NCBI GenBank assembly: GCA_964646045.1
Contig: CAZYAW010000088.1
Coordinates: 239 to 64,238 of the forward strand
Direction: 5' to 3'
From: an uncultured Victivallales bacterium
GTDB taxonomy: Bacteria > Verrucomicrobiota > Kiritimatiellia > UBA8416 > SLMC01
DNA length: 64,000 nt
In this document: positions 36,307 to 64,000 of the stretch, one piece after another
Position numbering within the stretch: the stretch's first letter is position 1
How the letters are laid out: each line of letters begins with the position of its first letter
The notes under the pieces: generated by a model
Told to the model about the DNA's origin: nothing
The model's input: only the letters and a program-made list of their open reading frames with translations
The model's database searches: none
Position numbers and translations under genes: made by a program

Positions 36307-36459
36307 ATGCCTAGGGAACTGGTGGTTCTGGCCTGCGCGGAATGCAAAAGGCGCAATTATACAACGGACCGCAACAAGAAATCCGGATCCGGCCGTCTGG
36401 AAATCACGAAGTACTGCCGCTTCGACAATAAGCGGACTGTACACAAGGAAACGAAGTAA
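36307..36459 (+). CDS. rpmG: 50S ribosomal protein L33
   Basis: Translation [50 protein letters not shown]. Too short to appear in the ORF track. Confidence 0.85.
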
Positions 36460-55996: not shown

Positions 55997-56362
55997 ATGA
56001 TAGCCGAGGAGACCGATCTGAGTGTCGCGGACAACAGCGGAGCCAGACGCGTGCGCTGTTTCCGCATTATCGGGCAGCGCAAAAAGTACGCCCGTATAGG
56101 CGACATTATCAAAGTGGCCGTCAAGGAAGCCCAGCCGGGCGGCCTGGTCAAAGCCGGACAGGTATGTACCGGTCTGATCGTGAGAACGAAAAACGCGATT
56201 CGGAGAAAGGACGGCTCCAGTCTCCGCTTCGACAATAACGCCGTCGTCCTGGTGGACGACAATCGCAACCCGATCGGATCCCGCGTACTGGGGCCGGTGG
56301 CGCGCGAATTGCGCGAAAAGAACTGCGCCAAGGTCATCTCGCTGGCGCCGGAGGTTCTGTAG
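55997..56362 (+). CDS. rplN: 50S ribosomal protein L14
   Basis: MIAEETDLSVADNSGARRVRCF... Confidence 0.9.
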   Translation: MIAEETDLSVADNSGARRVRCFRIIGQRKKYARIGDIIKVAVKEAQPGGLVKAGQVCTGLIVRTKNAIRRKDGSSLRFDNNAVVLVDDNRNPIGSRVLGPVARELREKNCAKVISLAPEVL

Positions 56363-56368
56363 AAAGTT

Positions 56369-56689
56369 ATGAGCGTACTCAGAATCAAAAAGAACGATAT
56401 GGTCGTCTCCGTTGCCGGCAATTCGGTCGGCAAGACGGGGAAAGTGCTTCAGGTAGTCAAAGCCGGGAAGCGCGCGATTGTGGAGGGGTTGCGTCCGGTC
56501 AAGAAGACGGTGCGCAAGTCGCAGGAGACTCCGAAAGGGGATATCGTGGAAAAAGATGCACCGATCGATATTTCCAACCTTATGCCCTATTGCCCGTCCT
56601 GCAAGAAAGGCGTAAAGATCAAGAGGGACAAGGATGGCAACCGGCGCGTCCGCCGGTGTCGGGCGTGCGGGCATTCATTTGACGGATAG
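56369..56689 (+). CDS. rplX: 50S ribosomal protein L24 with C-terminal CxxC-x16-CxxC zinc-ribbon
   Basis: KOW N-terminus (KKNDMVVSVAGNSVGKTGKV). The C-terminus reads ...YCPSCKKGVKIKRDKDGNRRVRRCRACGHSF. Confidence 0.85.
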   Translation: MSVLRIKKNDMVVSVAGNSVGKTGKVLQVVKAGKRAIVEGLRPVKKTVRKSQETPKGDIVEKDAPIDISNLMPYCPSCKKGVKIKRDKDGNRRVRRCRACGHSFDG

Positions 56690-56697
56690 GCGTAATC

Positions 56698-57237
56698 ATG
56701 ACATCGAATCTACTGGAAAAATACAGAAAAGAAGTCGTTCCCGAAATCAAGAAAGAATTCGGGATCGCCAACGCCATGCAGGTCCCGCGCATTGTCAAAA
56801 TCGTGATCAACATGGGGATTGGCATCGAGGACAAAAATGTTTTCGAAGCGCGGATCAAGGATCTGGCGGTCATCTGCGGACAGCGACCGGTTGTGACCAA
56901 GGCCAAGAAAAGCATCTCGAACTTCAAGGTTCGGGAAGGCATGAATCTGGGCGCCAAGGTCACGTTGCGGGGCCTGCGCATGTACGATTTTCTGGATCGG
57001 CTGATCAACGCGGCCCTGCCCAGAATTCGGGATTTTCGCGGACTGTCGGCCAAAAGCTTCGACGGGCGCGGCAATTACTCGATCGGACTGAAAGAGTACG
57101 ATATCTTTCCCGAAATCGATCCGAACCATGTGTCGGGCAATCAGGGCATGGACATCGTAATCGTGACGAACGCGCCAACGGACGATCTGGCCCGTGCGCT
57201 GTTGAAGAATTTCGGTATGCCGTTCAGCAAGAACTAG
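56698..57237 (+). CDS. rplE: 50S ribosomal protein L5
   Basis: 179 aa with L5 motifs. Confidence 0.9.
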   Translation: MTSNLLEKYRKEVVPEIKKEFGIANAMQVPRIVKIVINMGIGIEDKNVFEARIKDLAVICGQRPVVTKAKKSISNFKVREGMNLGAKVTLRGLRMYDFLDRLINAALPRIRDFRGLSAKSFDGRGNYSIGLKEYDIFPEIDPNHVSGNQGMDIVIVTNAPTDDLARALLKNFGMPFSKN

Positions 57238-57249
57238 ACGGAGGAAAAC

Positions 57250-57435
57250 GTGGCCAAAAAATCGCTAATAGTCAAATCGGAGCGCGAGCCTAAATTTTCA
57301 GCCAGGGGCTACGCGCGCTGCAGCCGTTGCGGGCGGCGCAGGGCCTTCATGAGAAAGTTCAAGTTGTGCCGAATTTGCTTCCGGGAAGCCGCCCTTGACG
57401 GACGTATCCCGGGCATTGTCAAGGCCAGTTGGTAG
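57250..57435 (+). CDS. rpsN: 30S ribosomal protein S14 type Z (zinc-binding, 61 aa)
   Basis: [23 protein letters not shown]: CxxC...CxxC. Confidence 0.85.
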
Positions 57436-58449: not shown

Positions 58450-58911
58450 ATGAGCGTACTATCCAGAACCGATGCGAGACGGCAGCGCCACGCACGCATC
58501 CGCAAAAAGGTGTCCGGCACGGCCGCGATCCCGCGCATGTCCATCGCTGTTTCTCTCAAGAAGATGCATGTGCAGTTTATCGACGACGAACAGGGCGTCA
58601 CGCTGGCATCGTCTTTTGCGCAACAGGATCGTGACGGCAAAAACGTCGCGACCGCGCGCAAACTCGGCCTGCGGGCCGGAGAACTGCTCCTGGCCCGGGG
58701 CATTGACCGTGTCGTGGTGGACCGCGGCGGCTTCCGATACCACGGACGCGTCCGGGGAATCGTGGAAGGCGCCATGTCGTCCGGCATTCGGGTCGGGTCC
58801 GCCGTTCTTCCGCCCGACCCGGCGGAAGCAAAAACGGCAAAAGGAAAATCCGACCGAAACGACGCCGGACCGGGTTCCGTTGGCAAAAAAGAGCGGAAGG
58901 AGAAGAAGTGA
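58450..58911 (+). CDS. rplR: 50S ribosomal protein L18 (Lys-rich ~35-aa C-terminal extension)
   Basis: L18 core, then a tail ...[27 protein letters not shown]. Confidence 0.85.
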
Positions 58912-59393
58912 GTTCTGCAAAAGGTGATTTCAGATCGGAAATGGAAGAGCGCGTGGTCTTTGTCAACCGCTGCGCCAAGGTAGTCAAGGGCGGACGGCGC
59001 TTCAGCTTCAGCGCCGTGGTCGTCGTCGGCGACAAGGCCGGCCGCGTCGGCTACGGCTTCGGCAAGGCCAACGAAGTCGCGGACGCCATCCGCAAGGGGG
59101 GCGGCAGCGCGCGCAAGGATCTCATGACGGTAACGATGCGAGACCGCACCCTGCCCCATGAAGTCCAGGCCGAGTTCTCCGGCGCGCGGGTTATTGTCAA
59201 ACCGGCGGCGCCGGGCACCGGCGTGATCGCCGGCGGGGGCATGCGCGCCGTACTCGAGGCGGCGGGCTACCGGGATGTGGTCGCCAAGTCGCTGGGCAGC
59301 GCCAACAAGCTCAATGTGGTCAAAGCCACGATCAAGGCTCTCGAAAAACTCCGCTCGAAAAGCGAAATCGAAGCCACAAGAAAACAGAACTAA
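58908..59393 (+). CDS. rpsE: 30S ribosomal protein S5 (GTG start overlapping rplR stop)
   Basis: [30 protein letters not shown]... Confidence 0.9.
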
Positions 59394-59413
59394 GCAGGAG
59401 ACGCAGCGCAGCC

Positions 59414-59866
59414 ATGAATCTTCATTCTCTCGAAAACAGCGTCGGCGCCCGCCGCAAACGCCGCATTGTCGGCCGCGGTATGAGTTCCGGCAGCGGCAAA
59501 ACATCCGGATCCGGACACAAGGGCCAGATGGCCCGCAAGGGGCACAAGCACAAGGACGGCTTCGAAGGCGGACAAATGCGCCTGATACGGCGCGTTCCAA
59601 AACGCGGGTTCAAGAACGCGTTGCGCGAGGAGTTCGTTCCGGTCAATGTCGGCTCCCTGTCCGTCTTCCCGGCCGACGGCGTCGTGGGTCTCTCCGAACT
59701 GGCGGAAAAGAACCTCGTAAAGGGGCCGCGCCACGCGCTCAAAGTCAAAGTGCTCGCTTTCGGTGAAATCGATCGCAAACTGACCGTGCGGGCCCACGCC
59801 TTCAGTGCGGCGGCGCGAACGAAGATCGAGACGGCCGGCGGAGTCTGCCTAATCGAAGGACAATAA
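59414..59866 (+). CDS. rplO: 50S ribosomal protein L15
   Basis: GRGMSSGSGKTSGSGHKGQ... Follows rpsE directly; no rpmD in between. Confidence 0.9.
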   Translation: MNLHSLENSVGARRKRRIVGRGMSSGSGKTSGSGHKGQMARKGHKHKDGFEGGQMRLIRRVPKRGFKNALREEFVPVNVGSLSVFPADGVVGLSELAEKNLVKGPRHALKVKVLAFGEIDRKLTVRAHAFSAAARTKIETAGGVCLIEGQ

Positions 59867-61275: not shown

Positions 61276-61923
61276 ATGCGATTGATCATATTGCTAGGCG
61301 CGCCGGGATCCGGCAAGGGGACAACGGCCGGAAAGATCCGCGAACGACTGGGAGCGCAACACCTGTCCACCGGCGACATGTTGCGTGCGGCCGTCAAAGA
61401 AGGCAGTCCGGCCGGGAAGGAAGCCGAGGATTACATGAAGAAAGGCGATCTGGTTCCGGACGAGGTCATTGTTCGTCTGGTACGGGACCGTCTGGATCGG
61501 GGCTCGGAAGGCGACCTATTCTTGCTCGACGGCTTTCCCCGTACGGTACGGCAGGCCGAGTTGCTTGAACAAAGTATCGCCGAGCGCGACGGATCTCTTT
61601 CCGGCGTAATTTTTCTCGACGCGCCGCGTGCGGTCCTGATCGAGCGACTGACCGGCAGAAGAATATGTCGCGATTGCGGAATGAATTTTCACGTGACCAA
61701 CGTGCCGCCCCGCCAAGAGGGCGTCTGCGACGCCTGCGGCGGCGAATTGTATCAACGTCCCGACGACCATCGCGAAACCATCGAGAACCGACTGGATGTA
61801 TACGCCCGTCAGACCGAAGATTTGATTGCCCGTTATCGCGACCGGGGAATCCTGACGAGAGTCGATTCTTCGCAGGGAGCGGATCAACTGGCCGAACAAG
61901 TAGCTGCGATCGTCGAGAAATGA
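61276..61923 (+). CDS. adk: Adenylate kinase (zinc-lid type)
   Basis: GAPGSGKGT P-loop and lid CRDCG...CDACGG. Confidence 0.9.
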   Translation: MRLIILLGAPGSGKGTTAGKIRERLGAQHLSTGDMLRAAVKEGSPAGKEAEDYMKKGDLVPDEVIVRLVRDRLDRGSEGDLFLLDGFPRTVRQAELLEQSIAERDGSLSGVIFLDAPRAVLIERLTGRRICRDCGMNFHVTNVPPRQEGVCDACGGELYQRPDDHRETIENRLDVYARQTEDLIARYRDRGILTRVDSSQGADQLAEQVAAIVEK

Positions 61924-61978: not shown

Positions 61979-62743
61979 ATGGGCTTGATTAAGAATCATG
62001 CGGATTTGCAAGGGTTGCGAGCCAGCGGCGGGATTGCGGCCCGTATCCGGGATCGGCTGGCGCAGACCGTTGCGCCAGGCGTCACCACGGGTGAAATCGG
62101 CGACTATGCCGCAGAATTAATGAAGCAGAACGAGGCGGAGAGCGCGTTTCTGGGATACCGCGGATATCCGGGCGTTATTTGCGTCTCGGTCAACGAGGAA
62201 GTGGTGCACGGCATACCCGGGCGGAGACGCATTCAGTTGGGGGACATTGTCGGCATTGATGTGGGCGTTCGGCATGGCGGATATGTTGGCGACACGGCGA
62301 CCACGGTCATGGTGGGAGTAACCGATCCGGACACGATTCGCCTGGTACGTGCCACGGAATCCGCCTTGGAGGCCGCCGTGAAACATGCGCAGACGGGGCA
62401 TCGTCTTTCGGATATATCGCATGCGATCGAGACCGTGGCCCGGGAAAACAATTGCGCGGTTGTGCGCAAGTTCGTGGGACACGGAATCGGACGCGAAATG
62501 CACGAGGAACCGCAGGTGCCGAACTTTGGTCCCAGGGGACGAGGCATGAAACTGAGGTCGGGCATGACGCTTTGTCTGGAACCGATGCTCAACTTGGGCG
62601 GTAGCGACGTGAAGGTTTTGTCGGACGAATGGACTGTGGTTACGCGCGACGGCAGCTTTTCGGCTCATTTCGAGCACATGGTGGCTCTGCGCAACGGAGA
62701 AGCGGAAATATTGAGCGTGGGTTCGAACGCGAGCGACCGATAA
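61979..62743 (+). CDS. map: Methionine aminopeptidase type I
   Basis: 254 aa with metal-ligand motifs (D..D..H..E..E). Confidence 0.9.
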   Translation: MGLIKNHADLQGLRASGGIAARIRDRLAQTVAPGVTTGEIGDYAAELMKQNEAESAFLGYRGYPGVICVSVNEEVVHGIPGRRRIQLGDIVGIDVGVRHGGYVGDTATTVMVGVTDPDTIRLVRATESALEAAVKHAQTGHRLSDISHAIETVARENNCAVVRKFVGHGIGREMHEEPQVPNFGPRGRGMKLRSGMTLCLEPMLNLGGSDVKVLSDEWTVVTRDGSFSAHFEHMVALRNGEAEILSVGSNASDR

Positions 62744-62787
62744 AAAAAGGAGCCGAAAGCAAAGGTTTTTGTGGACTTGTTGCCGCC

Positions 62788-62820
62788 AATGCGGTAGAGT
62801 GCCGCGTTTTTATTGTTTTG
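62788..62820 (+). terminator. Rho-independent terminator candidate downstream of map
   Basis: Stem AATGCGG/CCGCGTT with a 7-nt loop, followed by TTTATTGTTTTG. Confidence 0.35.
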
Positions 62821-62890
62821 GGTCGCAGGCGAGCCGATCCGTCGGCGTTCGGCACGCGTCAGTCGAGACGAAAAAAGAAGGAAAAGAATC

Positions 62891-63004
62891 ATGAAAGTGC
62901 GAGCTTCGGTCAAACGAATGTGCGAGCGATGCAAAGTGGTGCGACGCAAAGGCATTGTCCGTGTTATTTGCACCAATCTGCGTCATAAACAGAAGCAAGG
63001 ATAA
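62891..63004 (+). CDS. rpmJ: 50S ribosomal protein L36 (zinc-binding C+ form)
   Basis: [37 protein letters not shown]. Confidence 0.85.
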
Positions 63005-63479: not shown

Positions 63480-64000
63480 ATGGCGGAATCCGAATCGGGA
63501 AACGCGAAAGTAGCGGAAGAAAAAGAAAAAGGGTCGCAAGGGAGCGAGGTCGAATCGGCTTCGTCCGCTCCTGCGGAAAGCGGCTCCGACCTGAAAGGAA
63601 GTGGCGGAGAGGCCTCGTCGTCAGGGACGGAAACCGAGACGGAGACCGGGGTCAAGGCTCCGCGCGCAAAGAAGGGCGTAAAAATCACGCCGACGGGCAT
63701 TGCCCATATTCGCGCAACGTTCAACAACACGACGGTTACGATATCGGACCCCCAGGGCGGCGTGATTTCGTGGTGCACGGCGGGACGGGCTGGCTTCAAG
63801 GGGTCGCGGAAAAGCACGGCGTTCGCGGCCACAACTGTGGGACAGGATGCCGCCCGCCAGGCGGCCGCCAAAGGTATGCGCGAGGTTGAGGTGCGTGTTT
63901 GCGGCGCGGGTTCGGGGCGTGAATCCGCCATCCGCGCGCTGCAGTCCTCCGGACTCAGTGTTTCGGTCATCAAAGATGTGACCCCTATGCCGCACAACGG
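63480..64000 (+). CDS. rpsK: 30S ribosomal protein S11, 5' part (continues past window end), with ~50-aa acidic/Ser-Thr-rich N-terminal extension
   Basis: GGAGG Shine-Dalgarno, then ATG. The S11 core ([22 protein letters not shown]) begins after a low-complexity leader. No stop before 64000. Confidence 0.8.

Follow-up and report, generated by a model that had tools for sequence, protein, structure and literature searches.

The rplX gene for ribosomal protein uL24 is found on the plus strand of a 64-kb stretch of DNA (the window, i.e. the whole of the sequence analyzed here, with a GC content of 61%) from an uncultured PVC-group bacterium. Translation of the gene gives a 106-aa protein which contains YCPSCKKGVKIKRDKDGNRRVRRCRACGHSF, identical to the sequence quoted in a first-pass annotation of this DNA. 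The identification as bacterial uL24 made there is borne out by the NCBIfam equivalog model TIGR01079 (rplX_bact; 85.6 bits with a cutoff of 53.7, covering profile positions 2-102 of 104), by Pfam PF17136 (ribosomal_L24; E=1e-18 and 67.7 bits with a cutoff of 27) and by the position of the gene in the operon. The order rplN-rplX-rplE lies within a standard S10-spc-alpha cluster and is repeated on the independent contigs L081-L084, which carry identical or near-identical uL24 sequences; the one on sister contig L082 has the replacement N91S and keeps all four of its Cys. rplX is a single, ordinary gene of this spc operon. The features discussed below are collected in Table 1.

Table 1. Positions in the window of rplX, its motifs and the other ribosomal protein genes discussed.
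Feature	Position	Strand	Basis
rpmG, bL33, C10xxC13-x23-C37xxD40 ('CCCD')	36307..36459	+	NF001764, 72.4 bits
rplN (uL14), upstream neighbor of rplX in the spc operon	55997..56362	+	TIGR01067, 158.8 bits
rplX, uL24, C+ (four-Cys) isoform, 106 aa	56369..56689	+	translation, PF17136, TIGR01079, PDB match, AF2
First knuckle, C75-P-S-C78, directly after β-strand 71-75	56591..56602	+	codons, T. thermophilus CPAC alignment, AF2
18-residue spacer, conserved C-terminal β-hairpin (strands 84-89, 92-97)	56603..56656	+	DSSP of AF2 model
Second knuckle, C97-R-A-C100, followed by clade-typical GHSFDG tail	56657..56668	+	codons, T. thermophilus CAKC alignment
rplE (uL5), downstream neighbor of rplX	56698..57237	+	NF000585, 261.5 bits
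rpsN, type-Z (C+) uS14, 61 aa, C24xxC27-x12-C40xxC43	57250..57435	+	NF005974, 104.8 bits (cutoff 77)
rpmJ, C+ bL36, C11xxC14-x12-C27-x4-H32	62891..63004	+	TIGR01022, 71.9 bits

The gene cluster differs from the spc/alpha layout of E. coli and B. subtilis in lacking rpmD (L30) between rpsE and rplO (59393-59414, a gap of 20 bp) and infA between map and rpmJ (62743-62891, a gap of 147 bp). Two of its ribosomal proteins are extended. The 153-aa uL18 (58450-58911) ends in a Lys/Glu/Pro-rich C-terminal tail of about 35 aa, and rpsE begins with GTG at 58908, inside the 3' end of the uL18 gene. The uS11 gene (about 63480-64000) runs off the end of the window and is found complete at 13615-14166 of contig L082, where it encodes a protein of 183 aa with a Glu/Ser/Gly-rich N-terminal extension of about 55 aa before the conserved core.

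The only Cys residues of uL24 are those at positions 75, 78, 97 and 100, encoded as TGC/TGC/TGT/TGC at 56591-93, 56600-02, 56657-59 and 56666-68, respectively, and together they form the motif CxxC-x18-CxxC; the spacer had originally been given as 16 residues, a small miscount. When all PDB chains were searched, the best sequence matches of solved structure were those of Thermus thermophilus uL24 (4v9j_BY, 4v7p_BU, 10px_1Y and 4zer_1Y, with E about 5e-18 and 4e-18 at best). When the protein is aligned by phmmer to 4v9j_BY and 10px_1Y, CPSC falls opposite CPAC and CRAC opposite CAKC, and the loop has a single-residue gap. The T. thermophilus protein reads ICPACGK...VCAKCGG, and all four of its Cys are in register with those of the window protein. 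The two sets are therefore homologous, and the T. thermophilus ribosome is the bacterial one that has been studied most. This alignment also upholds, at the level of sequence, the earlier suggestion that the four Cys make up a metal site of the C+ type. The window protein and T. thermophilus uL24 (e.g. PDB 4Y4Y, 4V9J and 4V8A chain Y) are of the same length class, i.e. 106 and 107-110 aa, and have their two CxxC knuckles in the same columns, with the C-terminal β-hairpin between them. They differ in that identity is only about 37%, in the spacer, which is 19 residues in T. thermophilus and 18 in the window protein, and in the tail, which reads GALD in the former and the clade-specific GHSFDG in the latter. 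The hosts differ as well, as the window belongs to an uncultured PVC-group bacterium that shows no sign of thermophily. According to van den Elzen and colleagues (NAR 2023, PMC10450194), uL24 is one of several proteins by which the T. thermophilus ribosome coordinates zinc, and their Fig. 2 is drawn on PDB 4Y4Y.

An AlphaFold2 (AF2) model of the protein, built with 46 homologs, is all-β with a mean pLDDT of 87.5 and includes strands 71-75, 84-89 and 92-97. By DSSP, C75 and C97 end the strands 71-75 and 92-97, with the hairpin 84-89/92-97 lying in between, a placement that would be compatible with a zinc ribbon, in which two knuckles at strand or hairpin ends meet across a β-sheet. All of the top 50 Foldseek matches in the PDB were uL24 chains, with 0.88 as the highest query-normalised TM-score (TMq), a value reached by T. 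thermophilus 4v8a_AY at an rmsd of 1.4 Å over 102 columns. Cys-free uL24 from Listeria, S. aureus, B. subtilis and P. gingivalis superposes almost equally well, with TMq 0.84-0.87 and rmsd 1.2-1.8 Å. The modelled structure is thus that of uL24, consisting of an N-terminal KOW β-barrel and a C-terminal β-hairpin. The first-pass annotation had the hairpin replaced by the Cys-bearing segment, but in the model strands 84-89 and 92-97 are retained and superpose on those of Cys-free uL24, and a replacement by a new zinc module is ruled out by the fold search, in which Cys-free uL24 matches over the entire length. Cys-free bacterial uL24 (E. coli, B. subtilis, Listeria, S. aureus and P. gingivalis) occupies the same operon position and shares the fold, C-terminal hairpin included, and differs in having no Cys at the four positions; P. 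gingivalis 9i5t_X e.g. reads VVDPKTGK...VRYAKKSG there. The C+ form differs from the C- form only by the Cys at the base of the hairpin. Sub-threshold matches in the Pfam scan of uL24 were only to IBR and a ZFAND2 finger.

Among the best 120 of 1065 database homologs of the window uL24, 78 have the CxxC...CxxC pattern, the spacer being 18 residues long in 60 of them and 19 in the other 18, and 'GH' directly follows the second knuckle in 42 of these 78. Another 27 of the best 120 have no Cys at the same length (YDPDAKKGV...RKSKATG), including one cluster named Kiritimatiellia bacterium, and seven have one or two stray Cys. In six the second Cys is substituted by Asp, giving CxxD...CxxC (P0008, P0011, P0015, P0028, P0039 and P0062; YCPHDKKGV...CKVCGH), and in two the second knuckle is widened to CxxC...CxxxxC (P0050 and P0061); these relatives are 54-63% identical to the window protein. 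All 22 homologs with at least 60% identity (range 60-75%) have the four Cys except three of the CxxD variants (P0008, P0011 and P0015). The named homologs belong to Verrucomicrobiota and Kiritimatiellia. As the first-pass annotation had it, length is unchanged between C+ and C- forms: the Cys-free relative P0058, with YDPDAKKGV...RKSKATG in the Cys columns, is 105 aa long.

We also used the SecY sequence to fetch 80 genome loci with an spc operon, the nearest SecY matches being a MAG labelled Victivallales (70%) and Tichowtungia sp. of the Kiritimatiellota (59%). uL24 was present in 68 of these loci and of full length in 58, with 43 C+ and 15 C- proteins among the latter. The conservation of the Cys in close relatives, on which the earlier reading depended, is thus found in both samples. 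The C+ loci are spread over Desulfobacterota, Omnitrophota, Nitrospirota/Nitrospinota, Acidobacteriota, Planctomycetes, NC10 and Caldatribacterium. The remaining ten loci have a short uL24. In nine of these (74-89 aa; L002, L004, L005, L006, L012, L015, L024, L060 and L075) the hairpin is deleted, since a real stop codon follows 2-16 residues past the conserved 'SN(L/V)', while the tenth (L057) resembles a frameshift. Hosts of the hairpin-deleted form are Opitutaceae, Akkermansia, other Verrucomicrobiota, Tichowtungia and a Lentisphaeria MAG. Since the four Cys fall in the T. thermophilus columns and are kept in 78 of the best 120 homologs, the pattern is more than chance. As close relatives tolerate CxxD in the first knuckle, CxxxxC in the second, loss of all Cys or, in Verrucomicrobiota, deletion of the hairpin, uL24 can in some backgrounds function without the site.

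uL24 is not the only metal-type protein of this ribosome. The type-Z S14, the C+ L36 and the three Cys of L33 were all pointed out in the first-pass annotation and are confirmed here by NF005974 for the first, by C11, C14, C27 and H32 for the second and by C10, C13 and C37 for the third. To these last three is added D40, by which bL33 is the CCCD isoform and not a degenerate three-Cys protein; CCCD is a probable zinc binder (PMC10450194). The uS4 gene would lie just past position 64000 of the window; on sister contig L082 (14167-14796), from the same or a sister strain, uS4 has the C+ pattern C9xxC12...C26xxxxC31, which in T. thermophilus holds an Fe4S4 cluster (PMC10450194). Each of the five metal-type r-proteins accessible here (uL24, uS14, bL36, bL33 and the sister-contig uS4) is consequently C+, and this count is in line with the published Kiritimatiellaeota mean of 6 (PMC10450194 Table S2). 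Another Cys4 site in the same operon is found in adenylate kinase (61276-61923), with a four-Cys LID of the metal-binding type (C131xxC134-x16-C151xxC154).

We consider it very probable that the window uL24 is a C+ isoform with a structural zinc clamp, predicted by analogy to the T. thermophilus protein, at the base of its C-terminal β-hairpin. By this homology, the C75/C78 and C97/C100 knuckles would be located where the chain enters and leaves the conserved hairpin, and both together may bind one structural Zn2+ tetrahedrally there. The ion would then clamp the hairpin base onto the KOW/β-barrel core, and such a clamp could stabilize the fold of uL24, a small, early-assembling, 23S rRNA-binding protein. 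Tetrahedral geometry and zinc occupancy are both predicted for the window protein from homology to the T. thermophilus structures, and for the window organism we infer both zinc as the metal and a purely structural role for it.

As for the wider family of zinc-ribbon r-proteins, the classical C+/C- list of Makarova, Ponomarev and Koonin from 2001 reportedly comprises L31, L32, L33, L36, L28, S14 and S18, with L24 absent. The first-pass annotation likewise had L24 missing from the classical list, but the novelty that it implied fails, as uL24 has been published in C+ and C- forms (PMC10450194). In that survey, covering 2021 bacteria, C+ uL24 is defined as (CXXC)-(CXXC), a definition under which the window protein is C+, whereas its CxxD...CxxC and CxxC...CxxxxC relatives would score C-. 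That uL24 has a C+ class, that this class has a zinc site in solved structures and how it is spread over the bacterial phylogeny have thus all been published, and the finding is therefore already known. The window uL24 is one more case of a documented isoform, in a lineage already tabulated as C+-rich, and serves as an annotation and calibration point. It resembles the classical C+/C- proteins in its pattern of evolution, since here, too, a four-ligand site of a small r-protein is repeatedly disrupted without a change in length. Most of the literature on 'L24' and zinc is about a different protein, the archaeal and eukaryotic eL24 (L24e). This treble-clef zinc finger protein bears the old name 'L24' as well and binds zinc, but its family and fold are unrelated to those of bacterial uL24. 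Pfam and NCBIfam scans of the window protein gave bacterial uL24 models only and no match to the eL24 family. Two papers on 'L24' and zinc (PMC4999995 and PMC3352095) were set aside, as their subject is eL24.

Other readings of the four Cys concern the metal and its purpose. That they hold an iron-sulfur cluster or another metal is suggested by the T. thermophilus uS4 mentioned above, with its Fe4S4 cluster on four Cys, and the C+ uL24 lineages in our locus sample include many Desulfobacterota and other typically anaerobic groups. However, uL24 has been assigned zinc and not Fe-S, and the Fe-S case is tied to CxxC...CxxxxC, with its wider second knuckle (PMC10450194), whereas the window uL24 has CxxC...CxxC in register with the T. 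thermophilus zinc form. On these grounds, we regard a cluster or a different metal as extremely unlikely. Alternatively, C+ uL24 could be one half of a zinc-responsive C+/C- pair, in which the ribosome acts as a zinc reserve and a Zur-regulated Cys-free copy is encoded elsewhere. Such switching is established for L31, L33, L36, S14 and S18 in other bacteria, according to those statements of PMC10450194 that draw on its references 46-48. The equal length of C+ and C- uL24 would suit an exchange of this kind, but, in a difference from the classical C+/C- proteins, no duplicated Cys-free uL24 was seen in the 64-kb window, where tblastn gave no second uL24-like sequence (next best E=2.1), or in the 68 related uL24-bearing loci, where the copy number is never above one. 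To our knowledge, uL24 is not among the reported Zur-regulon paralogs either, and we hold this reading to be very unlikely.

A third possibility takes C+ uL24 and the other C+ r-proteins as a sign that the window organism is a thermophile. C+ frequency does climb with optimal growth temperature, and from 80 °C upwards the metal sites of uL24 become invariant (PMC10450194). Mesophilic lineages are also C+-rich, though, e.g. Kiritimatiellaeota, Acidobacteria and Planctomycetes with means of 6, 7.3 and 4.4 C+ r-proteins at mean optimal growth temperatures of 28, 23 and 27 °C, respectively; Verrucomicrobia are listed with 0.6 at 30 °C (PMC10450194 Table S2). The IVYWREL fraction of seven spc-operon proteins, a crude and uncalibrated proxy, is 0.415 in the window, within a range of 0.381-0.461 for 58 comparator loci, the highest value being that of Caldatribacterium. 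The Zeldovich formula would turn this into a nominal 53 °C, a figure that we dropped, as 0.415 is mid-range, soil Acidobacteria reach equal or higher values and the proxy is uninformative when uncalibrated. By this crude proxy, there is no indication of thermophily in the window organism, and we find it improbable that it is a thermophile. A high C+ r-protein count in a PVC bacterium without signs of thermophily instead advises caution against using that count as a thermometer here.

With the C+ isoform and its predicted zinc clamp as the preferred reading of the window protein, only the by-products of the comparison are mildly new, namely the CxxD and CxxxxC ligand variants and the PVC series from CCCC via Cys-free to hairpin-deleted uL24. 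Within the PVC superphylum, the forms of uL24 make up a graded natural series of CCCC, CxxD-CxxC, CxxC-CxxxxC, Cys-free of the same length and hairpin-deleted, and we would tentatively entertain, while considering it rather doubtful, that the intermediate variants bind metal and that the site has a role beyond thermostability. Should this be true, the prevalence of C+ uL24 among lineages that appear to be mesophilic would point to a function other than thermostability, e.g. retention of an ancestral state or zinc economy. A metal site with an Asp or Glu substitution has been described for bL33 only (PMC10450194). If the CxxD and CxxxxC forms of uL24 do bind metal, they would be uncharacterized ligand variants analogous to the CCCD and CCCE isoforms of bL33.
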